A DNA stretch of 64,000 nt from Spirochaetia bacterium (lineage in GTDB: Bacteria; Spirochaetota; Spirochaetia; WTKD01; G963693115). The notes below the pieces were generated by a model. That model searched no databases. It was not told the DNA's origin and was given only the letters and a program-made list of their open reading frames with translations. Where the stretch lies: the NCBI GenBank assembly GCA_965226055.1, contig CBDDCA010000005.1, positions 192,001 through 256,000 on the forward strand, read 5' to 3'. Position 1 is the first letter of the stretch; each line of letters starts with the position of its first letter. Below, in pieces: positions 2,861 to 59,061 of this stretch. The position numbers and the translations under genes are program-made.

Positions 2861-5800
2861 CTATGATGTACACTCTGGATCATCTCTATCCTTTGGGTAC
2901 TGTGCTGTTTTGCCAGCCATAGCTGAACCTGAGAAATCACCAGAATCTAATGTTAGGCTACACAATTTCCATGATGATAAGTTTTGATCAAATTTAGAAG
3001 CATCCTCAAATGCAAATCCAAATCCAAATCCAGTAACACTCCTTAATTTCCAGCTTACTATGTTTTTATTAAAAGCACTTGCTTTATAAAATATATAGGA
3101 AATATCAGTTACTTTCTCTACATTCCAACCTCCTATATCTTGATTAAAAGCAATAGCACTACTAAACATCCTATGCATACTGGTAACTTTTCCTGTATTC
3201 CAACCTCCTATGTCTTGATTAAAAATAGTAGCCTTCCTAAATACATTTTCCATACTAGTAACTTTTCCTGTATTCCAACCTCCTATGTCTTGATTAAAGG
3301 CATTCGCTTCAAAAAACATAGCATCTATATCCTCTACATTACTGGTATTCCATCGTGTTATGTCTCCATTAAAAGTACTATCATTCTGAAATAACTGACT
3401 CATATCGGTAATAACACTCGTATCTATCATGTTGAGGTTGGGACTAGGGTTGCTACTCTTCCCTCCTGTAGCTTGCCTTGTTTTTTCTTCACTGATAATA
3501 GTTTGTAGTGCTTTCTTTGTTGTTGGTCTATAATAGGTAGCTGCTTTTCCTGATGGTGCTGCTCTTAGCTCTGTCTGTATAACGATAGTGGCTAGTATTT
3601 TTTTCTTTGATGCAGTAAGGGTACACTGTACTACATCATAGCTATATTCAGTAATAGCTGTGTCTCGTATATTGGACTTATCTGCTATGCCTGTTATAGT
3701 AACTGTTTTGCTACTCTGATCAAACGATACTGCTAGCCCTGTTTCTTTTTTGATTTTCTTTGCATCTGCTTCTAGTATGTTTGCATCACAGGTAAAGGCA
3801 TTGCCACTGGGTGTGCTTGCTAATACTCTTGTAGTATTTATTGCTGGCGTTTTGCCTACTTCTGCTGAAACTATTGTAGTGTTTCCTATAGATATTGCGC
3901 TTGTTTCAAACTCGTAGCGTTCTCCTGTTGATGCTTTTGTAGGATCAGTGCTGTTTACTGCTTGTACAACTATTTCGTAGGTCGTTCCGTTTGTCAATCC
4001 TGTCAGGGTAGTGTTTGTTGTTCCTGCTGCTACTGTTGTGGGGCTTGAATCTGCTTGTTTTATCGCTGCTACATTTCTTGCACTGCCACTCTTGGCTACT
4101 TTGTATACTTTGTACGATACTTGTGCTGCTGTTAGGGTAGCTCCTGTATTTGTTTTGTGGCTTGCACTGAGGCTGGGGGCTGTCCACGATACTCTCATGC
4201 CGCCTGTCTGGGCTACTCTTGTCTGTATGCTTGTTACTTCTGCGGGGGCTGTTGCTTGCGATGCGGTTGTTACGCTTGCTACTGTTGAGGATGCTACTTT
4301 CTTGCTAGGGTCTGTTTTTATTGCTACCTCTACCACAAAGTAATACTTTGTCGCTCCTTTTATTGCTACTACTGGTGCTGTGTCTGAAGATAAGCCTAAA
4401 CTGGCAAGGGCTGGTACTGTGTACACTCCGCTACTTGCACTGCCTAGGTTTATCTTTCTGCCTGCAAGTACTTCTGCTACTGTAGGGTCAGTGTCTTTCT
4501 GTAAGCCATACACTGTGTATACTAGCTGATTGCTTGCTGTTATGTTTGTGCCATCGTAGTCTTTTGCTCCTGTAAATGTATTTAGCTCGGTAAGTACCAG
4601 CTTTATTGTGCCTGCTGTGTTTGTTGACGGTGATACTACTAGCTTTCCTGTCAGTAATGACTGGCTGGGTGCTACTGCTTTGGAAGTATAGATTTCCTTT
4701 ATTTCTGTTACATCGGTGTAAAAGCCTGCAGGAAAGAGCTTGTCGCTATTTGTTGCATCGTAATTGGATGATGTTGTGTTTACTATCCTCACTCCTATGT
4801 AGTAATCTTTTGCTGTTTCTATGGGCGTTGCTCCTGCACTGCTTCCACTGGTGCTGTCTACTATTGCTATGGATATTGTGTCTTGAGTTGTTCCTGTTGC
4901 TTTTGTGTATTTTGCTACTTTTACACTGCTTTTCTCTGTTGCCCATAAAGCCGATACGCTGGCAGGCTTTCCTGTGGTATCTTCTTTCTTGAGGTATAGC
5001 ACATAGTACGCAAGGTCTGTCGCTTCAAGGGCATTGCCATTTGCCTTGCTCACTCCTGCTATGTCTGAGGCATTTACTTGTACTGTTATTACTTTTTTCC
5101 CTCTATTGCTTCCTGTTGTAGGCACTGCAAATACCACTGCATTACTGTTAGTGTAGGTTGTTACTTTTGGTGTGCTTGGGGGAGCGGTAAGAGTTGCTTT
5201 CTTTATTGTTACTGATGCTCCTATGCTATACGAGGGATTAAGGCTGTTTATCGCTTCTACTCCTGCGGTATAGTCTGCTCCTTTCGTTCCTATAAATGTT
5301 GCTTTTAATGGGTTGCTGTTTCCTGCTAGCTCCCGTGTTTGTACTCCTGCAAGGGCTTTTATTTCGTCTAGTGTCTTTGTGCTATGGTCTCCTGCTGCTA
5401 TGTATACTTTGTACTGTATTTGTGCCTGTGTGAGTTTGCTTCCACTGGGAGCTTTGTTATCATTAGTAATAGTACCTGCACTAAATGTATAGACTGCTGT
5501 TGCAGTTGTTTGGGTTACTGACTCTACGGTGAGCTTTGCATCTTTTGCAGCGGGCGGTGCTGTCGAGGTGCTATCGTATACTGCTACTGCATCAGCAAGT
5601 GCGGTTACGGGGCTTACTCTGTTATTTGCTATTTGCAGAAAATCAAAGCGATAATTCTTGGCATTTGCTTGGCTCTTGGGTACTTCTACGCCATCTGCTA
5701 TCCCAAAGCTAATGGTGGTTGCTGTTCTTGTTATGCTTTTTTCTGCTATTAAGGTAGCTCCCTCTTTCATACGCAAAGTGTAGTATCGCCCTATGCCTGG

Positions 5801-7689
5801 AGCTTGCTTAAAAGTTGCTTTTATTTGTATAGCTCCTGTTTTGTCAAGGGTAGGCTTGCTTTGAAAGAGATCTTCTGAGGGGGCTGTGAGTGAGTTGGGG
5901 GTGGTTATGTCTTTTGTTGCTTGACTACTTTTGTTTTCTGAGTAATCAAGCGTGAGTATTGTTATGGTATATGTTTTTCCTTGCACAAGTTCTTCTACAG
6001 AGAGTGACTTTGTGGGATAGGGTATTTTCTTCTCGCTCAGTACTGCAGTGCTTGTGCCTTTCTCTGCTATGCTTATGCTGTATTCTTTTATGTCCTTGTT
6101 ATTGGCTTTTGTTGTATCGGGTGCTGTCCATGTTATCTGCGTGCCTATCTTTGCTGCTGATACAAAGGGATAGCTTGCTTGTATGCTTGTTACTGCATCG
6201 GGGGCGGTGCCATCATCTACTGTGGTGGTGGTTGCTGTTATTTTTGCTCCTTTGTTGCCTGTGTAATCTTGTGACTGTACTGCTATGCTGTACTCGGTAG
6301 TGGCTTTGAGGCCTGTTATCTGCGTGTTTCTTAGTGTTCTCTCTGTTATTGTTACTGTCTTTGCTGCTGTTGTGCTGTCCTTTTCTGTTGCTGTTATAGT
6401 CACTCCTGCATAATCTCGTACATCGGGGGCTTGCCAGCCTACTACTATGCTTGTTGCTCCTCCTATGGCACTTACATTGCTTACAGGCTCTGTGCTTTTG
6501 TCTGTTGTTGCTTGTTCTTTTGACACTGCAGTGGAGTACTTTCCGTTTTTAAAAACATACACTTCTACTTTGTACGTAAGCGTGCCGTAGAGTTTTGTGA
6601 GTGCTATGCCATCTTTTGCTACATACACAGTGGCGTACTCTCTGTTGTCTGCACTTGCTCCGCTGACATTGGTTGTACTTGTATCTTTGTCTATTGTTTC
6701 TTCTGCTACTACTGTATTGGTTGCGGTTGCTGTTACTCGTACTTGCAGGCTTTTGTCTGTAAAAGTAAAGCTCCCCCACTTGATAAGCAGGCTTTCATCG
6801 GCTGGGCTATTGCTTTTATCGTTTGCTGTTACTGTAAGGTTTGCCTCTGGCAGTGGCGTTACTGTTTGTGAGAGTGCTGATGGCACTATGCCTCTGAGTG
6901 CTTGCTTTGCCGTGCTTTTGTTACCGTTGCTATCTTTGTATACTACTACTATATCATAGCTGATGCCATCTATAGTGGGGACAGCAATGCTCACCTCTCC
7001 TTGTGTTACATCTTGTACTGATACTTCTGTCTTTACATTAGTAGTTTTTTCTATCACCTGTATTGTGGCTTCGGCTATGTCTGTCTTGCCTGACGAGAGC
7101 AGTGCTTTGTCCCATGTTAGCTTTATACTATCGTTTTGTGCTTTCTCTACTGCTACCCGTGTAAAAGTGTCCTGTGGTGCAGTTTCATCGGTAAGTGTTG
7201 TCACAGAGCGTGTTGTTTTTGGTGATATTTCTGTGTCTGAGCCTGTGTCTGATTTTTGGGCTTCTATCTCTACAGTATAATCGGTAGTAGCATGCAAGCC
7301 TCTGAGTGTGTAGGGTCTGTTTTGTTGAAACAATGCACGATATTCTATTGCAGGAACACGCACTTCTATTGATTGTGCTGGTGTCGTTGAAGTTGCTTTT
7401 ACAACTACATGTGTGGCTTCGCTGGGAGCTTGCCAGCGTAACGAGAGCGTCCCATCGTTGCCTGCTACTTGTATCTGCACATTGGACACTGATGCGAGTG
7501 TCGGGGTCACTGGTGTTCCCCCTCCGCCTGAGGAACTGCTACTGCTCTCTGCACATCCTACGAGTACGAGGGTAGTCATTGCTAGCACTGCTAGTATAGT
7601 TAGATTTTGCTTATATCGAGAGTGTACCCCCCCCCCCCCCCGATTTTTTTCAGGCTGTGAAGTTCCTTACTCAACCACATTTTTTTCAT
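2861..7689 (-). CDS. large surface lipoprotein L1 (Fn3/Ig-like stalk + DUF285/BspA-type repeat head); frameshifted at a G15 tract in the signal peptide
   Basis: ORF 2861-7588 carries the LVLVGC lipobox, Fn3-like repeats and six 25-aa MF..A..FNQDI..W repeats. The likely true start is ATG 7689 with an AAGGAG RBS matching L2/L3, 101 nt upstream of the ORF start (out of frame by one G). Confidence 0.88.
7627..7641 (-). repeat. poly-G15 simple sequence repeat (candidate phase-variation tract)
   Basis: 15 consecutive C on the + strand of an AT-rich genome, inside the L1 signal-peptide coding region. Confidence 0.85.
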
Positions 7690-7846
7690 AATGTTCTCCT
7701 TAATTATTATCTATATTGTGTGTTTATCATTACACAATGAACAACTATTATTATAACACAAATACTATTTTTTTGTGGCATCCTGCAAAAAGAAAAAATA
7801 CATAAAATAAGGCGTACACATATATTACTTTTAGCACTAGAAACTA

Positions 7847-8764
7847 TTACAGAGTCATGGGTAATAAAGATCTATATGAAGATAGTCGTTTTTCTGCCAA
7901 ATCAATATATTCTTTACAAGTGTCAAATCCAACAAAATTTCTATTTGATGTAAGAGCTGCTATACCAGTAGTACCACTTCCTATAAATGGATCAAGAATT
8001 ATATCATTTGTAAAAGAAAATAATTGAATAAGTCTAAATGGTAACTCAACAGGAAATGGAGCAGGATGACCTACTCGTCTTGCCGATTCTGCATTAAAAG
8101 TCCATATTGATTTTGTCCAATCAATAAAATTTTGCTTCAAAATAGTATTTTGTTTTCTCCCTTTCTCTTCCTGTGTCCGTTCACGTTTATATTCCCCCTT
8201 AGAAAAAATAAGAATATACTCATGAGTATCTCTTAATGTAGGATTAGATGCTGACATCCAACTCCCCCATGCAGTAGAAGAACTAGCACTAGCTGCCTTA
8301 TTCCAAATAATCTCCCCTCTCATATTAAAGCCTATATCTATCATAATGGTAGAAATATAATCACTAAGAGGAATATATGGTTTTCTCCCTACATTTGCTA
8401 TGTTAATACAAGCTCTACCTCCATTAACAAGAACTCTATATGTTTCCTTAAAAACATTACTAAGCATATGGAGATACTCCTGTAATGATAAATCTTCATC
8501 ATATTCTTTAGAAACATTATAAGGAGGAGAAGTAACCATAAGATGCAATGAATTATCAGGAATAACAGACATATCCTCAGCATTTCCTACAATGTTTGTA
8601 TTCAATAAATGATCAGGAAAATCATTTACTTCATAAGATGCTATCGTATGTGCCACATTTTCGTATAACTTTGAATTATAGAAAGGGGTAGAATTATGAT
8701 TGACTCTCCCTTTTACTCCAAACGAACTTGTAGCTGTATTGGTAGTAGAAGTATATTTACTCAT
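7847..8764 (-). CDS. site-specific DNA methyltransferase, beta class (probably N4-cytosine)
   Basis: Catalytic TSPPY precedes the SAM-binding LDPFIGSGTT; also HPAPFP and TAWGSW motifs. No adjacent endonuclease. Confidence 0.9.
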   Translation of the reverse strand: MSKYTSTTNTATSSFGVKGRVNHNSTPFYNSKLYENVAHTIASYEVNDFPDHLLNTNIVGNAEDMSVIPDNSLHLMVTSPPYNVSKEYDEDLSLQEYLHMLSNVFKETYRVLVNGGRACINIANVGRKPYIPLSDYISTIMIDIGFNMRGEIIWNKAASASSSTAWGSWMSASNPTLRDTHEYILIFSKGEYKRERTQEEKGRKQNTILKQNFIDWTKSIWTFNAESARRVGHPAPFPVELPFRLIQLFSFTNDIILDPFIGSGTTGIAALTSNRNFVGFDTCKEYIDLAEKRLSSYRSLLPMTL

Positions 8765-49150: not shown

Positions 49151-52100
49151 TTACGATGTACATGCTGGATCACCTCTAAAAATCTTTGGGAGCTGTGCTG
49201 TTTTCGTTTCCATAGCTGAGCCTGTAAACATACGACTTTGTAATCTTGATATACTACACAATTTCCATGATGATAAATCTTGATCAAATACAGAAGCATC
49301 TCTAAATATATTAATAATATTTACAACTTTACTTACATTCCAGCTTCCTATATTCTGATTAAATACACTTGCTTTATTAAACATACTAAACATACTAGTA
49401 ACTTTACTTACATTCCAGTTTCCTATGTTTTGATTAAATGCACTTGCTTCATCAAACATACTATCCATATGAGTAACTTTACTCACATTCCAGTTTCCTA
49501 TATTTTGATTAAAATCATCTGTTTCAATAAACATACCAGCCATACCAGTAACTTTTCCCGTATCCCAATTTCCTATGTTTTGATTAAAAACACTTGCTCC
49601 CCAAAACATACTGGACATATTCATTACATTACTGGTATTCCACTGTGTTATATCTCCATTAAAAGTACTATCCTTCCTAAATAATTCACTCATATCAGTA
49701 ATAGCACTGGTGTCTATCATGTTGAGGTTGGGGCTAGGGTTACTGTTTCCTCCTGAACCTTGCCTTGTTTTTTCTTCGCTGATAATAGTTTGCAGTGCTG
49801 ATTTTGTTGTTGGTCTGTAATAGGCTTCTGCTTTTCCTGATGGTGCTGTTCTTATATCTGTCCGTATAACAATAGTGGCGGGTACTTTTTTCTTTGAAGC
49901 GGTTATTGTACACTGTGCTACATCATAGCTATACTCAGTAATATTAGGGTCACGTATATTGGACTTATTTGCTATGCCTGTTATAGTAACTGTTTTGCTA
50001 CTCTGATTAAACGATACTGCTAGCCCTGTTTCATCTTTTATTTTCTTTGCATCTGCCTCTAGTATGGTGGCATCACAGGTAAAGGCATTGCCACTGGGTG
50101 TGCTGGTAAGTACTCTTGTAGTATTTGATGCTAGTGCTGTGCCTACTGTTGCTGAAACTATGCTAGTGTTTCCTATAGATATTGCACTTGCTTCAAACTC
50201 GTGGCGTTCTCCTGCTGATACTTTTGCAGGATCGGTGCTGTTTACTGCTTGCACTACTATTTCGTAGGTCGTTCCGTTTGTCAATCCTGTCAGGGTAGTG
50301 TTTGTTGTTCCTGCTGCTATGTTTTTTGTTGCTGTATTAGCATTTGCTTTTATCTGTGCTACGCTTCTCGTTGTATCACCACTCTTGGCAATGCTGTATA
50401 CTTTGTACGATACTTGTGCTGTTGTTAGGGTAGCTCCTTTATTTGTTTTGTGACTTGCACTGAGGCTGGGAGCTGTCCACGATACTCTCATACCTGTCTG
50501 GGCTACTCTTGTCTGTATAGTTGATACTTCTGCAGGGGCAGTCGCTTGCGATGCGGTTGTTACGCTTGCCACTGTCGATACTGCTTTTTTGCTAGTGTCT
50601 GTTTTTACTGCTACTTCTACCACAAAGTAATACTTTGTCGCTCCTTTTATTGCTACTACTGGTGCTGTGTCTGCAGACAAACCTAAACTGGCAAGGGCTG
50701 GTACTGTGTACACTCCGCTACTTACACTGCCTATATCTATCTTTCTGCCTGCAAGTACTTCTGCTACTGTAGGGTCAGTGTCTTTCTGTAAGCCATACAC
50801 TGTGTATGCTAGCTGATTACTAGCGGTTATGTTTGTGCCATCGTAGTCTTTCGCTCCTGTAAATGTGCTTAGCTCGGTAAGTACCAGCTTTATTGTGCCT
50901 GCTGTGTTTGTTGACGGTGATACTACTAGCTTTCCTGTGAGTAATGACTGATTTGGTGCTACTGCTTTGGAAGTATAGATTTCCTTTATTTCTGTTACAT
51001 CGGTGTAAAAGCCTGCAGGAAAGAGCTTGTCGCTATTTGTTGCATCGTAATTGGGGGATGTTGTGTTGACTATCCTCACTCCTATGTAGTAATCTTTTGC
51101 TGTTTCTATGGGGGTTGCTCCTGCATTGCTTCCACTGGTGCTGTCTACTATTGCTATGGATATGGTTGCTTGAGTTGTTCCTGTTGCTTTTGTGTACTTT
51201 GCTACCTTTACACTGCTTTTCTCTGTTGCCCATAAAGCCGATACACTGGCAGGCTTTCCTGTAGTATCTTCTTTCTTGAGGTATAGCACATAGTACGCAA
51301 GGTCTGTCGCTTCAAGGGCATTGCCATTTGCCTTACTCACTCCTGCTATTGCTGAGGCATTTACTTGTACTGTTATGACTTTTTTTCCTCTGTTGCTTCC
51401 TGTGCTAGGCACTGCAAATACTACTGCATTACTGTTAGTGTAGGTGGTGCTTTTTGGGGTATTTGGTGGTGCAGTAAGCGTTGCTTTCTTTATTGTTGCT
51501 GATGCTCCTATGCTATACGAAGGATTGAGGCTGTTTATTGCTTCTACTCCTGCGGTATAGTCTGCTCCTTTCGTTCCTATAAATCTTACTTGTAAGGTAC
51601 TGTCTCCTGCTATATTCTGTGTTTGTACTCCTGCAAGTCCTTTTATTGCCTCTAGTGTTTTTGTGCTGTGGTCTCCCTCTGCTATGTATACTTTGTACTG
51701 TATTTGTGCCTGTGTGAGTTTGCTTCCACTGGGTGCTTTGTTATCATTGGTAATGTCTCCTGCACTAAATGTATAGACTGCTGTTGCGGTTATTTGGGTT
51801 ACTGATTCTACAGAGAGCTTTGCATCTTTGGGAGCGGGCGGTGCTGTTGAGGTACTATCATATACTGCCACAGTATCAGCAAGAGTAGTTACAGGGCTTA
51901 CTATGTTATTTGCTATTGTCAAAAAGGTAAAGCGATAATTCTTGGCATTTGCTTGTACCTTAGGTACTTCTAAGCCATCTGCTATCCCAAAAGTAATGGC
52001 TGTTACACTTCCTGTTATGCTTTTTTCTGCTACCAGTGTAGCACCATCGTACATACGCAAAGTATAGTAGCTTCCTATGCCTGGAGCTTGCTTAAAGCTT

Positions 52101-53950
52101 GCTTTTATTTGTATTGCTCCTGTTGTGTCTAAGCTAGGCTTGTTTTGAAAAAGATCTTCTGACGGAGCTGTGGGTTGCGGAGTAGTTATGTCTTTTGTCG
52201 CTTGAGTGCTTTTGTTTTCTGAGTAATCAAGCGTGAGTATTGTTATGGTATATGTTTTTCCTTGTGTGAGTTCTTCTACAGAGAGTGCTGTTGTGGGATA
52301 GGCTACTTTTTTCTCATTTACTACTGTGGTGCTTGTGCCTTTTTCTGCTATGCTTATGCTGTATTCTTTTATGTCTTTGTTATTGGCTTTTGTTCCATCG
52401 GGTGCTGTCCATGTTATCTGTGTGCCTATCTTTGTAGGTGATACAAAAGGATAGCTTGCTTGTATGCTTGTCACTGCATCGGGGGCGGTGCCATCATCTA
52501 CTGTAGTGGTGGTTGCTGTTATTTTTGCTCCTTTGTTGCCTGTGTAGTCTTGTGACTGTACTGCTATGCTGTATTCAGTGGTAGCTTTTAGTCCTGTTAT
52601 CTGCGTGTTTCTTAGTGTTCTCTCTGTTATTGTTACTGTCTTTGCAGGGCTGTTCTTTTCTGTTACTGTTATAGTCACTCCTGCATAGTCTCTTACATCG
52701 GGGGCTTGCCAGCCTACTACTATGCTTGTTGCTCCTCCTACTGCACTCACATTGCTTACAGGCTCTGTGCTTTTGTCGGTTGTTGCTTGTTCTTTTGACA
52801 CTGCAGTGGAGTACTTTCCGTTTTGAGAGACATACACTTCTACTTTGTAGGTAAGCGTGCCATAGAGTTTTGTGAGGGCTATGCCATCTTTTGCTACATA
52901 CACAGTGGCGTACTCTTGATTGTCTGCACTTGCAGAGCTGAGTTTGGCTGTACTGCTATTGCTCACTGTTTCGTATGCTATGAGAGTATTTGTTGCTGTT
53001 GCTATCACTCGTACTTGCAGACTTTTTCCTGTACTAAAATCAAAGTTATTCCCCCACTTGATAAGCAGGCTTTCATCGGCTGGGCTATTGCTTTTATCGT
53101 TTGCTGTTACTGTAAGATCTGCCTCTGGCAGTGCGGCTACTGTCTGTGAGAGTGCTGAGGGTACTATGCCTCTGAGTGCTTGCTTTGCCGTGCTTTCGTT
53201 GCCATTGCTATCTCTGTATACTACTGTTACATCATAGCTTATGCCGTCTATAGTAGGAACAGCAATAGTTACTTCTCCTTGTGTTACATCTTGTACTGTT
53301 ACTTCTTTTTTTACATTAGTGGTGCTTTCTATCACCTGTACTATGGCTTCTGCTATGTCTGTTTTGCCTGACGAGAGCAGTGCTTTGTCCCATGTTATCT
53401 TTATACCATTTGTTGCTGATTCTACTGCTACCTTGTTGAAGGTATCTTGAGGTTTCGTTGTATCTGTCAATGTTGTCACAGAGCGGGTTGTTTTTGGTGA
53501 TACTTCTGTATCTGAGCCTGAGTTTGACTTCTGGGCTTCTATCTCTACAGTATAATCGGTAGTAGCGTGCAAGCCTCTGAGTACATAGGGTCTGTTTTGT
53601 TGAAACAATGTACGATATTCTATTGCAGGAACACGCACTTCTATTGATTGTGCTGGTGTCGTTGATGTAGCTTTTACAACTACATGCGTAGCATCGCTTG
53701 GAGCTTCCCAGCGTAACGAGAGCGTCCCATCGTTGCCTGCTGCTTGTATCTGCACATTGGACACTGATGCGAGTGTCGGGGTTACTGGCGTTCCCCCTCC
53801 GCCTGAGGAACTACTGCTACTCTCTGCACATCCTACGAGTACGAGGGTAGTTATTGCTAGCACTAACACAAGCGCAACTAGAGTTATGCTATACTTACTT
53901 TGTAGCTTACCATTTATCTGATAGTTTAGTTTTTCATTACTTTTTTTCAT
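49151..53950 (-). CDS. large surface lipoprotein L2 (Fn3/Ig-like stalk + six DUF285/BspA-type repeats)
   Basis: 1599-aa ORF, AAGGAG RBS, LVLVGC lipobox; close paralog of L1 and L3. Confidence 0.92.
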   Translation of the reverse strand: MKKSNEKLNYQINGKLQSKYSITLVALVLVLAITTLVLVGCAESSSSSSGGGGTPVTPTLASVSNVQIQAAGNDGTLSLRWEAPSDATHVVVKATSTTPAQSIEVRVPAIEYRTLFQQNRPYVLRGLHATTDYTVEIEAQKSNSGSDTEVSPKTTRSVTTLTDTTKPQDTFNKVAVESATNGIKITWDKALLSSGKTDIAEAIVQVIESTTNVKKEVTVQDVTQGEVTIAVPTIDGISYDVTVVYRDSNGNESTAKQALRGIVPSALSQTVAALPEADLTVTANDKSNSPADESLLIKWGNNFDFSTGKSLQVRVIATATNTLIAYETVSNSSTAKLSSASADNQEYATVYVAKDGIALTKLYGTLTYKVEVYVSQNGKYSTAVSKEQATTDKSTEPVSNVSAVGGATSIVVGWQAPDVRDYAGVTITVTEKNSPAKTVTITERTLRNTQITGLKATTEYSIAVQSQDYTGNKGAKITATTTTVDDGTAPDAVTSIQASYPFVSPTKIGTQITWTAPDGTKANNKDIKEYSISIAEKGTSTTVVNEKKVAYPTTALSVEELTQGKTYTITILTLDYSENKSTQATKDITTPQPTAPSEDLFQNKPSLDTTGAIQIKASFKQAPGIGSYYTLRMYDGATLVAEKSITGSVTAITFGIADGLEVPKVQANAKNYRFTFLTIANNIVSPVTTLADTVAVYDSTSTAPPAPKDAKLSVESVTQITATAVYTFSAGDITNDNKAPSGSKLTQAQIQYKVYIAEGDHSTKTLEAIKGLAGVQTQNIAGDSTLQVRFIGTKGADYTAGVEAINSLNPSYSIGASATIKKATLTAPPNTPKSTTYTNSNAVVFAVPSTGSNRGKKVITVQVNASAIAGVSKANGNALEATDLAYYVLYLKKEDTTGKPASVSALWATEKSSVKVAKYTKATGTTQATISIAIVDSTSGSNAGATPIETAKDYYIGVRIVNTTSPNYDATNSDKLFPAGFYTDVTEIKEIYTSKAVAPNQSLLTGKLVVSPSTNTAGTIKLVLTELSTFTGAKDYDGTNITASNQLAYTVYGLQKDTDPTVAEVLAGRKIDIGSVSSGVYTVPALASLGLSADTAPVVAIKGATKYYFVVEVAVKTDTSKKAVSTVASVTTASQATAPAEVSTIQTRVAQTGMRVSWTAPSLSASHKTNKGATLTTAQVSYKVYSIAKSGDTTRSVAQIKANANTATKNIAAGTTNTTLTGLTNGTTYEIVVQAVNSTDPAKVSAGERHEFEASAISIGNTSIVSATVGTALASNTTRVLTSTPSGNAFTCDATILEADAKKIKDETGLAVSFNQSSKTVTITGIANKSNIRDPNITEYSYDVAQCTITASKKKVPATIVIRTDIRTAPSGKAEAYYRPTTKSALQTIISEEKTRQGSGGNSNPSPNLNMIDTSAITDMSELFRKDSTFNGDITQWNTSNVMNMSSMFWGASVFNQNIGNWDTGKVTGMAGMFIETDDFNQNIGNWNVSKVTHMDSMFDEASAFNQNIGNWNVSKVTSMFSMFNKASVFNQNIGSWNVSKVVNIINIFRDASVFDQDLSSWKLCSISRLQSRMFTGSAMETKTAQLPKIFRGDPACTS

Positions 53951-54054: not shown

Positions 54055-54070
54055 AAAAAAAAAAAAAAAA
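54055..54070 (-). repeat. poly-T16 tract in the L2 upstream region
   Basis: 16 consecutive A on the + strand, ~105-120 nt upstream of the L2 ATG. Confidence 0.8.
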
Positions 54071-54247: not shown

Positions 54248-57200
54248 CTATGATGTACATGCTGAACTACCAGCAACCTTTGGATACTGTGCTGTTTTGC
54301 CATCCATAGCTGAATTTTTGAAAATATTGAAAAGTCCTTGTACCCTACACAGTTTCCATGAGGATAAATTTTGATCAAATACAGAAGCATTACGAAACAT
54401 GGCACTAATATTAGTAACATTCCCTACATTCCAATTTCCTATATTTTGATTAAAGGCACTTGCTAAAAGAAACATGGTAGCCATAGTCTTTACACTACTC
54501 ACATCCCAATCTCCTATGTCTTGATTAAAAGCAGTAGCTTCATCAAACATTGAATTCATATTAGTAACCTTGCTTGTACCCCAATCTCCTATGTCTTGAT
54601 TAAAGACAACAGCTTTAAAAAACATAGCCCCCATATCCGTTACGTTACTGGTATTCCACTGTGTTATGTCTCCATTAAAAGTACTATCACTATCAAATAA
54701 ACTATTCATATCAGTAATAGCACTGGTGTCTATCATGTTGAGGTTGGGGCTAGGGTTACTATTCCCTCCTGAACCTTGCCTTGTTTTTTCTTCACTGATA
54801 ATAGTTTGAAGCTGTGCCTTTGTTGTTGGTCTGTAATAGGCTTCTGCTTTTCCTGATGGTGCTGTTCTTAGCTCTGTCTGTATAACAATAGTGGCTGGCA
54901 CTTTTTTCTTTGAAGCGGTAATTGTACATTGCACTACATCATAGCTATACTCAGTAATAGCTGTGTCTCGTATATTGGACTTATTTGCTATGCCTGTTAT
55001 GGTAACTGTTTTGCTATTCTGATTAAACGATACTGCTAGGCCTGTTTCTTTTTTGATTTTCTCTGCATCTACCTCTAGTATGTTTGCATCACAGGTAAAG
55101 GCATTGCCACTGGGTGTGCTTGCTAGTACTCTTGTAGTATTTGATGCTAGTGCTGTACCTACTGTTGCTAATACTATGCTAGTGTTTCCTATAGCTATTC
55201 CTCTTGCTTCAAACTCGTGGCGTTCTCCTGTCGATGCTTTTGTGTCATCGGTACTGTTTACTGCTTGCACCACTATTTCGTAGGTCGTTCCGTTCGTCAA
55301 GTTTGTCAGGGTAGTGTTTGTTGTTCCTGCTGCTACTGTTGTGGGGCTTGAATCTGCTTGTTTTATCGCTGCTACATTTCTTGCACTGCCACTCTTGGCT
55401 ACTTTGTATACTTTGTACGATACTTGTGCAGCTGTTAGGGTAGCTCCTTTATTTGTTTTGTGACTTGCACTGAGGCTGGGAGCTGTCCACGATACTCTCA
55501 TACCTGTCTGGGCTACTCTCGTCTGTATAGTTGATACTTCTGCGGGGGCAGTCGCCTGCGATGCTGTCGTTACACTTGCCACTGTCGATACTGCTTTTTT
55601 ACTTGTGTCTGTTTTTATTGCTACTTCTACCACAAAGTAGTACTTTGTCGCTCCCTTTATTGCTACTACTGGTGCTGTGTCTGATGACAAGCCTAAACTG
55701 GCAAGGGACTGTACTGTGTACACTCCGCTACTTGCACTGCCTAGGTTTATCTTTCTGCCTGCAAGTACTTCTGCTACGGTAGCAGTGCCGTCTTTCTGTA
55801 AGCCGTACACTGTGTATACTAGCTGATTACTTGCTGTTATGTTTGTGCCATCGTAGTCTTTTGCTCCTGTAAATGTGCTTAACTCGGTAAGTACCAGCTT
55901 TATTGTTCCTGTAGTATTTGTTGACTGTGATACTACCAGCTTTCCTGTGAGTAATGACTGGCTGGGTGCTACTGCTTTGGAAGTATAGATTTCCTTTATT
56001 TCTGTTACATCGGTGTAAAAGCCTGCAGGAAAGAGCTTGCTACTATTGGATGCATCGTAATTGGGGGATGTTGTGTTGACTATCCTTACCCCTATGTAGT
56101 AATCCTTTGCTGTTTCTATGGGCGTTACTCCTGCATTGCTTCCACTGGTGCTGTCTACTATTGCTATGGATATTGTGTCTTGAGTTGTTCCTGTTGCTTT
56201 TGTGTATTTTGCTACCTTTACACTGCTTTTCTCTATCGCCCACAGAGCTGATACGCTGGCAGGCTTTCCTGTGGTATCTTCTTTCTTGAGGTATAGCACA
56301 TAGTACGCAAGGTCTGTCGCTTCAAGGGCATTGCCATTTGCTTTGCTCACTCCTGCTATTGCTGAAGCATTGAGTTGTACTGTTATGACTTTTTTCCCTC
56401 TATTGCTTCCTGTTGTAGGCACTGCAAATACTACTGCATTACTGTTAGTGTAGGTGGTGCTTTTTGGGGTATTTGGTGGTGCAGTAAGCGTTGCTTTCTT
56501 TATTGTTGCTGATGTTCCTATGCTATACGATGGATTGAGGCTGTTTATTGCTTCTACTCCTGCGGTATAGTCTGCTCCTTTCGTTCCTATAAATCTTACT
56601 TGTAAGGTACTGTCTCCTGCTATATTCTGTGTTTGTACTCCTGCAAGGCCTTTTATTGCCTCTAGTGTTTTTGTGCTGTGGTCTCCTTCTGCTATGTATA
56701 CTTTGTACTGTATTTGTGCCTGTGTAAGTTTGCTTCCACTGGGTGCTTTGTTATCATTGGTAATGTCTCCTGCACTAAATGTATAGACTGCTGTTGCGGT
56801 TACTTGTGTTACTGACTCTACAGAGAGCTTTGCATCTTTTGCAGCGGGCGGTGCTGTCGAGGTACTATCGTATACTGCCACAGTATCGGAAAGAGTAGTT
56901 ACAGGGCTTACTATGTTATTTGCTATTGTCAAAAAGGTAAAGCGATAATTCTTGGCATTTGCTTGTACCTTAGGTACTTCCAAGCCATCTGCTATCCCAA
57001 AAGTAATGGCTGTTACACTTGCTGTTATGCTTTTTTCTGCTACCAGTGTAGCTCCATCGTACATACGCAGAGTGTAGTAGCTTCCTATGCCTGGAGCTTG
57101 CTTAAAGGTTGCTTTTATCTGTATTGCTCCTGTTGTGTCTAAGCTAGGCTTGTTTTGAAAAAGATCTTCTGACGGAGCTGTGGGTTGCGGAGTAGTTATG

Positions 57201-58945
57201 TCTTTTGTTGCTTGGCTACTTTTGTTTTCTGAGTAATCAAGCGTGAGTATTGTTATGGTGTATGTTTTGCCTTGTGTGAGTTCTTCTACAGAGAGTGCTG
57301 TCGTGGGATAGGGTATTTTCTTCTCGCTCAGTACTGTGGTGCTTGTGCCTTTTTCTGCTATGCTTACGCTGTATTCTTTTATGTCTTTGTTATTGGCTTT
57401 TGTTGTATCGGGGGCTGTCCATGTTATCTGTGTGCCTATCTTTGTAGGTGATACAAAGGGATAGCTTGCTTGTATGCTTGTTACTGCATCGGGGGCGGTG
57501 CCATCATCTACTGTGGTGGTGGTTGCTGTTATTTTTGCTCCTTTGTTGCCTGTGTAATCTTGTGACTGTACTGCTATGCTGTACTCAGTGGTAGCTTTTA
57601 GGCCTGTTATCTGTGTATTGCGTACTGTTCTCTCTGTTATTGTTACTGTCTTTGCTGTTGTTGTTGTGCTGTCTTTTTCCGTTACTGTTATAGTCACTCC
57701 TGCATAGTCTCTTACATCGGGGGCTTGCCAGCCTACTACTATGCTTGTTGCTCCTCCTACTGCACTCACATTGCTTACAGGCTCTGTGCTTTTGTCGGTT
57801 GTTGCTTGTTCTTTTGACACTGCAGTGGAGTACTTTCCGTTTTTAGAAACATACACTTCTACTTTGTAAGTAAGCGTACCATAGAGTTTTGTGAGGGCTA
57901 TGCCGTCCTTTGCTACATACACAGTGGCGTACTCTTGATTGTCTGCACTTGCAGAGCTGAGTTTGGCTGTACTGCTATTGCTCACTGTTTCGTATGCTAT
58001 GAGAGTATTTGTTGCTGTTGCTATCACTCGTACTTGCAGACTTTTTCCTGTACTAAAATCAAAGTTATTCCCCCACTTGATAAGCAGGCTTTCATCGGCT
58101 GGGCTATTGCTTTTATCGTTTGCTGTTACTGTAAGATCTGCCTCTGGCAGTGCGGCTACTGTCTGTGAGAGTGCTGAGGGTACTATGCCTCTGAGTGCTT
58201 GCTTTGCCGTGCTTTCGTTGCCATTGCTATCTCTGTATACTACTGTTACATCATAGCTTATGCCGTCTATAGTAGGAACAGCAATAGTTACTTCTCCTTG
58301 TGTTACATCTTGTACTGTTACTTCTTTTTTTACATTAGTGGTGCTTTCTATCACCTGTACTATGGCTTCTGCTATGTCTGTTTTGCCTGACGAGAGCAGT
58401 GCTTTGTCCCATGTTATCTTTATACCATTTGTTGCTGATTCTACTGCTACCTTGTTGAAGGTATCTTGAGGTTTCGTTGTATCTGTCAATGTTGTCACAG
58501 AGCGGGTTGTTTTTGGTGATACTTCCGTGTCTTTTTGTGCCTCTATCTCTACAGTATAATCGGTAGTGGCATGCAAGCCTCTGAGTACATAGGGTCTGTT
58601 TTGTTGAAACAATGTACGATATTCTATTGCAGGAACACGCACTTCTATTGATTGTGCTGGTGTCGTTGATGTAGCTTTTACAACTACATGCGTAGCATCG
58701 CTTGGAGCTTCCCAGCGTAACGAGAGCGTCCCATCGTTGCCTGCTGCTTGTATCTGCACATTGGACACTGATGCGAGTGTCGGGGTTACTGGTGTTCCTC
58801 CTCCGCCTGAGGAACTACTGCTACTCTCTGCACATCCTACGAGTACGAGGGTAGTCATTGCTAGCACTAAAAATAGTGCAACAACTATAAATATGTTCAG
58901 CTTACCATGTAGCTGATGGTTTAGTTTTTCATTACTTTTTTTCAT
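54248..58945 (-). CDS. large surface lipoprotein L3 (Fn3/Ig-like stalk + five DUF285/BspA-type repeats)
   Basis: 1565-aa ORF, AAGGAG RBS, LVLVGC lipobox; tandem paralog of L2. Confidence 0.92.
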   Translation of the reverse strand: MKKSNEKLNHQLHGKLNIFIVVALFLVLAMTTLVLVGCAESSSSSSGGGGTPVTPTLASVSNVQIQAAGNDGTLSLRWEAPSDATHVVVKATSTTPAQSIEVRVPAIEYRTLFQQNRPYVLRGLHATTDYTVEIEAQKDTEVSPKTTRSVTTLTDTTKPQDTFNKVAVESATNGIKITWDKALLSSGKTDIAEAIVQVIESTTNVKKEVTVQDVTQGEVTIAVPTIDGISYDVTVVYRDSNGNESTAKQALRGIVPSALSQTVAALPEADLTVTANDKSNSPADESLLIKWGNNFDFSTGKSLQVRVIATATNTLIAYETVSNSSTAKLSSASADNQEYATVYVAKDGIALTKLYGTLTYKVEVYVSKNGKYSTAVSKEQATTDKSTEPVSNVSAVGGATSIVVGWQAPDVRDYAGVTITVTEKDSTTTTAKTVTITERTVRNTQITGLKATTEYSIAVQSQDYTGNKGAKITATTTTVDDGTAPDAVTSIQASYPFVSPTKIGTQITWTAPDTTKANNKDIKEYSVSIAEKGTSTTVLSEKKIPYPTTALSVEELTQGKTYTITILTLDYSENKSSQATKDITTPQPTAPSEDLFQNKPSLDTTGAIQIKATFKQAPGIGSYYTLRMYDGATLVAEKSITASVTAITFGIADGLEVPKVQANAKNYRFTFLTIANNIVSPVTTLSDTVAVYDSTSTAPPAAKDAKLSVESVTQVTATAVYTFSAGDITNDNKAPSGSKLTQAQIQYKVYIAEGDHSTKTLEAIKGLAGVQTQNIAGDSTLQVRFIGTKGADYTAGVEAINSLNPSYSIGTSATIKKATLTAPPNTPKSTTYTNSNAVVFAVPTTGSNRGKKVITVQLNASAIAGVSKANGNALEATDLAYYVLYLKKEDTTGKPASVSALWAIEKSSVKVAKYTKATGTTQDTISIAIVDSTSGSNAGVTPIETAKDYYIGVRIVNTTSPNYDASNSSKLFPAGFYTDVTEIKEIYTSKAVAPSQSLLTGKLVVSQSTNTTGTIKLVLTELSTFTGAKDYDGTNITASNQLVYTVYGLQKDGTATVAEVLAGRKINLGSASSGVYTVQSLASLGLSSDTAPVVAIKGATKYYFVVEVAIKTDTSKKAVSTVASVTTASQATAPAEVSTIQTRVAQTGMRVSWTAPSLSASHKTNKGATLTAAQVSYKVYKVAKSGSARNVAAIKQADSSPTTVAAGTTNTTLTNLTNGTTYEIVVQAVNSTDDTKASTGERHEFEARGIAIGNTSIVLATVGTALASNTTRVLASTPSGNAFTCDANILEVDAEKIKKETGLAVSFNQNSKTVTITGIANKSNIRDTAITEYSYDVVQCTITASKKKVPATIVIQTELRTAPSGKAEAYYRPTTKAQLQTIISEEKTRQGSGGNSNPSPNLNMIDTSAITDMNSLFDSDSTFNGDITQWNTSNVTDMGAMFFKAVVFNQDIGDWGTSKVTNMNSMFDEATAFNQDIGDWDVSSVKTMATMFLLASAFNQNIGNWNVGNVTNISAMFRNASVFDQNLSSWKLCRVQGLFNIFKNSAMDGKTAQYPKVAGSSACTS

Positions 58946-59043: not shown

Positions 59044-59061
59044 AAAAAAAAAAAAAAAAAA
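59044..59061 (-). repeat. poly-T18 tract in the L3 upstream region
   Basis: 18 consecutive A on the + strand at the position equivalent to the L2 tract. Confidence 0.8.

Follow-up and report, generated by a model that had tools for sequence, protein, structure and literature searches.

In Neisseria gonorrhoeae, pilC, a gene for a surface protein, is switched ON and OFF by frameshifts in a run of guanines located where the signal peptide is encoded, and the Neisseria opa loci, up to 12 dispersed genes encoding outer-membrane proteins, carry CTCTT pentamers; both are as outlined in the relevant passages of PMC5354566. In Helicobacter pylori sabA, a repeat in the 5' part of the coding sequence acts as an ON/OFF switch and a T tract beside the -35 element tunes transcription, according to the part of PMC4081817 that deals with this gene. 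N-terminal poly-G phase variation has been proposed for two DUF285 lipoproteins of Mycoplasma agalactiae, MAG1330 and MAG3260, in an account that also deals with the PARCEL genes of M. capricolum (PMC2996958, in the sections on these genes). Comparable poly-G lipoprotein genes are P48-like/P68 and spma, and the spma locus has eight poly-G tracts in 5' untranslated regions, as given in excerpts of PMC2824730. M. feriruminatoris has a large DUF285 repertoire, ~27 per strain, in the corresponding portion of PMC10634449. Among spirochetes, the tpr multigene family of Treponema pallidum surface proteins has G15–17 tracts linked to phase variation; as described in the pertinent text of PMC3656149, these tracts lie in promoters and the coding frameshift of tprA is in a CT repeat. 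In a literature survey that covered mostly open-access main texts, no paper was evident on the present fn3/DUF285 family or on signal-peptide poly-G switching in a spirochete lipoprotein family.

Here we describe such a family, starting from L1, a gene in a 64,000-nucleotide stretch of DNA (the window) from a Spirochaetia bacterium. The initial annotation had proposed that a G15 tract in its signal peptide holds this gene in an OFF state.

Results

A G15 tract interrupts the signal peptide of L1

The window contains three long paralogues, L1, L2 and L3, in each of which a domain search finds fn3 domains followed by C-terminal DUF285 repeats (PF03382 match of 185.6 bits against a gathering threshold of 25). 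A search of PDB sequences with L1 gave no match at an E value of 0.01. The features of these genes, all on the minus strand, are as follows.

2861–7588, minus: L1 body, intact 1575-aa ORF with fn3 repeats and C-terminal DUF285 repeats (domain search)
7553–7626, minus: remaining L1 signal, with the end of the n-region, hydrophobic h-region and lipobox, Cys codon at 7555–7553 (inspection and comparison with L2/L3)
7600–7602, minus: TAA of the 29-residue out-of-frame peptide
7627–7641, minus: G15 tract, the candidate switch, out of frame in the assembly
7642–7689, minus: start codon and basic n-region of the lipoprotein signal, with A7-TC just before the tract
7667–7669, minus: TAA closing the frame of the long ORF upstream of the tract
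7696–7701, minus: RBS AAGGAG, -9.2 kcal/mol
7750–7755, minus: putative extended -10 box, TATAAT after TG-n, a common family motif
7787–7798, minus: interrupted T-rich segment T6-C-T5, at the position of T13–T19 in many paralogues
49151–53950, minus: L2, paralogue with a tract-free in-frame signal
54055–54070, minus: T16 upstream of the L2 promoter region, ending 104 nt before the ATG, putative transcription dial
54248–58945, minus: L3, paralogue with a tract-free in-frame signal
59044–59061, minus: T18 upstream of the L3 promoter region, ending 98 nt before the ATG, putative transcription dial

The L1 leader contains C15 on the forward strand, which is G15 on the strand of the gene, whereas the window's second-longest run of G or C measures 6 nt; with independent bases, ~1e-6 runs of C15 would be expected by chance. 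The tract starts 48 nt downstream of ATG 7689, a start that is preceded by a strong RBS (AAGGAG at 7701–7696) and that was correctly likened to those of L2 and L3, as the calculated anti-SD pairing is -9.2 kcal/mol at L1 and -9.3 kcal/mol at the other two. Translation from ATG 7689 yields the out-of-frame peptide MKKMWLSKELHSLKKIGGGGGYTLDISKI, which ends after 29 codons at TAA 7602–7600, and L1 is in the -1 (OFF) phase in the assembly consensus. The 1575-codon ORF is closed in its own frame upstream by TAA 7669–7667, also as originally annotated. When tract lengths from 10 to 19 were simulated, lengths of 10, 13, 16 and 19 gave a single ORF of 1607–1610 codons, bearing out the prediction that G16 or G13 would restore a complete lipoprotein signal, and the remaining lengths led to a stop after 24–30 codons, ~4–8 codons past the tract. 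By inspection, a basic n-region, a hydrophobic h-region and a lipobox cysteine are all present in the in-frame reading of L1 and in its homologues; the signal was judged by eye, with a lipobox consensus and by comparison with L2 and L3.

The tract would be irrelevant if translation of L1 began at GTG 7588 or at ATG 7579, as could happen if ribosomes re-initiated once past the stop at 7600. GTG 7588 is only 11 nt past this stop, and gene callers choose such starts: the database entry for L1 itself, P0014, has a called start inside or after the tract. However, neither codon has an RBS (pairing energies of +2.1 and +0.1 kcal/mol, respectively), and the resulting signal of 8–11 residues, compared with 37–40 in L2 and L3, would contain no basic residue, making export unlikely. 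The initial annotation had discounted GTG 7588 for its lack of an RBS and a basic n-region; in our judgment, translation from either of these starts is extremely unlikely.

A gene for an N6/N4 DNA methyltransferase (7847–8764), on the same strand, ends 158 nt upstream of the L1 start; no long homopolymer was found in it.

Homologues of L1 have three types of N-terminus

Using residues 1–700 of L2 as the query, we retrieved 72 proteins, most of them from a few long contigs. Only 14 matches, four of them strong, were obtained among 1.84 billion representatives, which indicates that the fn3/DUF285 family is narrowly distributed. The N-termini of the homologues fall into three types: tract-free signals, in-frame poly-Gly signals and starts called inside or after the tract. 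In-frame poly-Gly signals are present in P0013, P0028, P0029, P0031, P0049 and P0059, and the signal that had been predicted for an in-frame L1 does exist in four of these (P0013, P0028, P0031 and P0049), which read ...GGGG(G)VHSRYKQN...LVGC. Six other contigs carry 32 family proteins, with 20 tract-free signals, 11 truncated N-termini and one in-frame poly-Gly signal. These contigs may share the window's assembly; the set is known as proteins, and its view at the DNA level is that given by L1–L3.

Several further relatives were noted. The leader of P0023, KKNRGMGDK, resembles a G tract interrupted by substitutions, and its switch may be stabilized. Between 38102 and 46745 the window contains three more lipoprotein-like genes with fn3 and/or DUF285 domains and no long repeat in their 5' ends. 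In a different species, whose GlnRS is 83% identical, the 44%-identical relative P0068 keeps an in-frame poly-Gly leader and is accompanied by P0069 and P0070, two copies that at the protein level are called without a leader; in the GlnRS search, the nearest matches after the close relative were at 83% and then at ≤64%. P0068, P0070 and P0194 are distant relatives that keep the fn3 stalk and end in kelch repeats instead of DUF285, P0194 additionally carrying BspA-type LRR, which suggests that the tip domains of fn3-stalk proteins are exchangeable.

Poly-G leaders in a related chromosome occupy all three phases

The DNA-level comparison was made between the consensus sequences of two assemblies, that of the window and OZ244590.1, the 2.36-Mb chromosome of a metagenome-assembled Spirochaetia bacterium in which shared non-family stretches are 92–96% identical to the window. 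All 39 loci from the genome scan, which was confirmed by tblastn, are in OZ244590.1, and the counts given here cover 803,884 unique bases of it. G/C runs in these bases comprise four of length 8, none of 9–10 and 36 of 11–18 (1, 4, 0, 11, 12, 4, 1 and 3 runs at lengths 11 to 18). The 36 long runs have the flank AAAAT(C/T)-Gn-TA in common, and 35 of them are in the leader of an fn3/DUF285 family member. The family in this chromosome is dispersed and numbers ~40 genes, at least 34 of them tract-bearing, with proteins of 1400–2600 aa. The single gene picked out by the initial annotation is one unit of a genome-wide system.

Phase could be scored for 34 of the 36 tracts, one being at a locus edge and one lacking an RBS-ATG. 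Of these 34 copies, seven are in frame, with 13 at +1 and 14 at -1, and the in-frame share is consistent with a third of the copies being ON (binomial p=0.145). The length of the A run before the tract, 4–8 nt, alters which G length is in frame. Tract-free copies are in frame in six of six cases, compared with 7/34 of those with a tract (Fisher p=4.5e-4), and bodies of at least 1412 codons are intact in 26 of the 27 out-of-frame copies. One of the seven in-frame copies, L003, breaks further down. The presence of all three phases and of intact bodies in the relative favors the ON/OFF reading of the initial annotation, with the qualification that OFF, for L1, denotes a consensus state in which a G16 may have been under-called.

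Other irregularities were seen in this chromosome. Single-base breaks outside the G tract occur in L003, just past the lipobox, and in L010, ~742 codons past the tract, so some indels are errors or decay. At L036:16165–16179, a G15 with the family flank has no RBS-ATG ahead of it, and a DUF285 lipoprotein of a different kind starts ~145 nt downstream; this G15 is either a relic leader or a promoter-level tract. At L001:9925–10000, a promoter T15 region is joined to the mature part, the RBS and signal peptide being gone, a junction that appears to have arisen by deletion.

The distribution of tract lengths could also be read as an artefact of the consensus, in which long G runs are under-called by one or two bases and most copies, including L1, are truly G13, G16 or G19. 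The peaks at 14 (11 copies) and 15 (12 copies) are just under the in-frame length of 16, none of the tracts is at 13, 12 falls below 13 as 18 does below 19, and every out-of-frame state can be expressed as -1 or -2. This explanation nevertheless requires miscalls at 27 of 34 tracts, about half of them by two bases, and leaves unexplained why the tracts occur at one site only. Shorter homopolymers also argue against it, although as controls they fall short of 15-mers: ~519 A/T runs of 7–9 and 57 G/C runs of 6–8 are present in intact ORFs of at least 250 codons at these loci, with bins of length 10 disregarded as fragments of longer runs. In ~20 kb of orthologous non-family DNA, a control that holds no 15-mers, there is no gene-splitting indel, and two 1-nt indels near the 3' end of one gene change only its last residues. 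We therefore regard wholesale miscalling as unlikely, and even if it had occurred, the L1 tract would stay slippage-prone and L1 would then be expressed. Because under-calling of G16 by one or two bases could yield the 14/15 peak, the OFF state of L1 is less certain than its ability to switch.

Intact bodies in nearly all OFF copies are likewise what would be seen if expression were leaky, through slippage during transcription or frameshifting of ribosomes at the G run, with DNA length acting as a high/low setting. Riboshifting is raised as an alternative for the P48-like poly-G gene of M. agalactiae in the passage of PMC2824730 on that gene. A programmed frameshift would be expected to fix one phase, however, whereas the out-of-frame copies divide almost evenly between +1 and -1, and reversible switching predicts intact bodies equally well. 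Leaky expression is in our judgment distinctly improbable as the main explanation.

Tract length differs between close copies

The syntenic orthologue of L1 in OZ244590.1, L002, has G12 in place of G15, with both genes in the same OFF phase. Since the two differ by exactly three bases, this pair documents a change in length and not a change in state. Two paralogues that are 98.4% identical over 4.7 kb, L037 and L039, have G15/T19 and G18/T15, respectively, and their subfamily, OFF in OZ244590.1, is in frame in another record (P0193). In two more pairs with identical 24+60-nt flanks the phases differ (G14 versus G15 and G12 versus G14). Judged from these comparisons, tract length is evolving faster than the surrounding sequence.

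Paralogues are also very similar, with a median identity of 91% (243 long pairs), and the type of leader switches at least 4–5 times on a quick tree; of the ten tract-free rows in this tree, two do not represent genuine 5' ends. These changes of leader type suggest leader swaps or losses. The spirochete vls and vmp cassettes act by gene conversion, and the similarity of the paralogues, the changes of leader and the true breaks in L001, L003 and L010 would all suit a model in which the tract has merely inactivated the out-of-frame copies, leaving them as young pseudogenes or silent cassettes from which expressed copies acquire sequence by conversion. Unlike promoterless cassettes, however, the OFF copies retain a promoter-like box, an RBS, a start codon and a full body, and the in-frame copies use the same tract. 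We consider it very unlikely that these copies serve only as donors, but the cassette and switch readings are compatible, and gene conversion among paralogues may operate alongside switching.

The relative also has an 11.4-kb insert (L033:9743–21148) that is missing from the window between matches to 29158 and 29253. It holds an out-of-frame G15 family lipoprotein, a CRISPR-like array with 36-nt repeats, a small transposase-like ORF and a 1404-codon ORF that, from its N-terminus, we take to resemble Cas9.

T tracts lie upstream of putative promoters

The initial annotation stated that L2 and L3 have no tract like that of L1. This holds for G runs, the longest near their signals being 2–3 nt, but it overlooked the T16 and T18 upstream of their promoter regions. 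These are the sole A/T runs above 9 nt in the window, and at the corresponding site L1 has only T6-C-T5. The T16 of L2 sits 36 nt upstream of a TATAAT, and [T/C]TATAAT is found in 38 of the 43 family 5' ends that have an RBS. Runs of T13–T19 occur in 12 of 40 copies in the relative as well as in L2 and L3, ending 83–117 nt before the ATG and upstream of the conserved TATAAT of the predicted promoters. Among the OZ244590.1 copies, 26 have a G tract only, eight have both G and T tracts, four have a T tract only and two have neither.

In generic promoter scans, sites were no more frequent than in shuffled sequences and the TATAAT of L1 was not called, so the case for a T-tract tier is one of position. 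By analogy, the poly-T that precedes the putative -35 region in L2 and L3 probably provides a second tier at which transcription is tuned, a weaker proposal than that made for the G tracts. A role for the T tracts as intrinsic terminators was considered and dropped, as no terminator was found at the L2 T tract. Tracts of T13–T26 are also present near non-family genes of OZ244590.1 (L013:4185, L024:20343, L028:2087 and L014:4515).

Discussion

By every criterion that can be tested on sequence, L1 is a poly-G contingency locus. It is highly probable that L1 can be switched, and in the sample that was sequenced the majority of cells are likely to have L1 OFF. Very probably, the family of ~40 genes forms a slipped-strand ON/OFF contingency system of the pilC/Opa kind. 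Slipped-strand mispairing at replication would alter the G tract by one base each time, and one length in three would link the ATG and n-region to the h-region, the lipobox and the 1560-residue fn3/DUF285 body. The ON product is predicted to be a lipoprotein that is exported and has a few glycines in its n-region, and export would be lost in the OFF phases. The tract is placed in the one part of the signal where changes in length are tolerated. We infer that tract changes are reversible and that the lipoproteins are displayed on the surface, where variation may serve to evade phage or host recognition or to vary adhesion. Because a common leader cassette heads most of the ~40 dispersed genes, each cell would display its own subset.

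Classic spirochete surface variation uses gene conversion. The other classic spirochete route is through promoter G tracts, at least in the tpr-related text of PMC3656149, in contrast to a spirochete that apparently varies its surface through dozens of independent frameshift switches. There is also a practical consequence: gene callers begin OFF copies inside the signal peptide, so that in databases neither the switch nor the lipoprotein status is visible. Should the organism live with a host without harming it, the system would be relevant to the question of why phase variation at multiple loci seems to be restricted to pathogens.

The mechanism itself is known and has been proposed for DUF285 lipoproteins in Mycoplasma; what is notable is its scale in an uncultured spirochete, with a family this large and possibly a second tier. 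With ~40 giant fn3/DUF285 lipoprotein genes (an estimated ~8% of the chromosome), at least 34 independent poly-G switches, a swappable leader and a poly-T promoter dial, this may be among the largest single-family repeat-switch repertoires described, with a dominant tier that differs between close relatives, although we advance this only tentatively. In OZ244590.1, 34 of 40 copies are G-switched, and in the probable assembly of the window ~20 of 32 are tract-free, as judged from proteins.

The position of the G tract is that of pilC, where the signal peptide of a surface protein is encoded, but pilC is a pilus adhesin with two copies for which switching has been shown, whereas here switching is inferred and the family consists of lipoproteins, at least 34 copies of which have the tract in one chromosome. 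As in opa, dispersed paralogues with independent leader-repeat switches would generate combinations, although here there are about three times as many genes, the repeat is a mononucleotide run and the products are lipoproteins of 1400–2600 aa. The pairing of a DUF285 lipoprotein with an N-terminal poly-G is shared with the Mycoplasma DUF285/PARCEL genes. Two such DUF285 genes are named in the relevant part of that source, in contrast to a spirochete family most of which is tract-bearing, and here DUF285 tips a long fn3-containing stalk, unlike in the Mycoplasma DUF285 lipoproteins. The possible two tiers recall sabA, and the T tract, as placed relative to the predicted promoters, would match in position, its effect here being putative; sabA, however, is a single adhesin with a CT dinucleotide, whereas here the tiers are spread over paralogues. 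Finally, in contrast to tpr, where the G tracts are in promoters, the G tract of this spirochete family lies in the lipoprotein signal.
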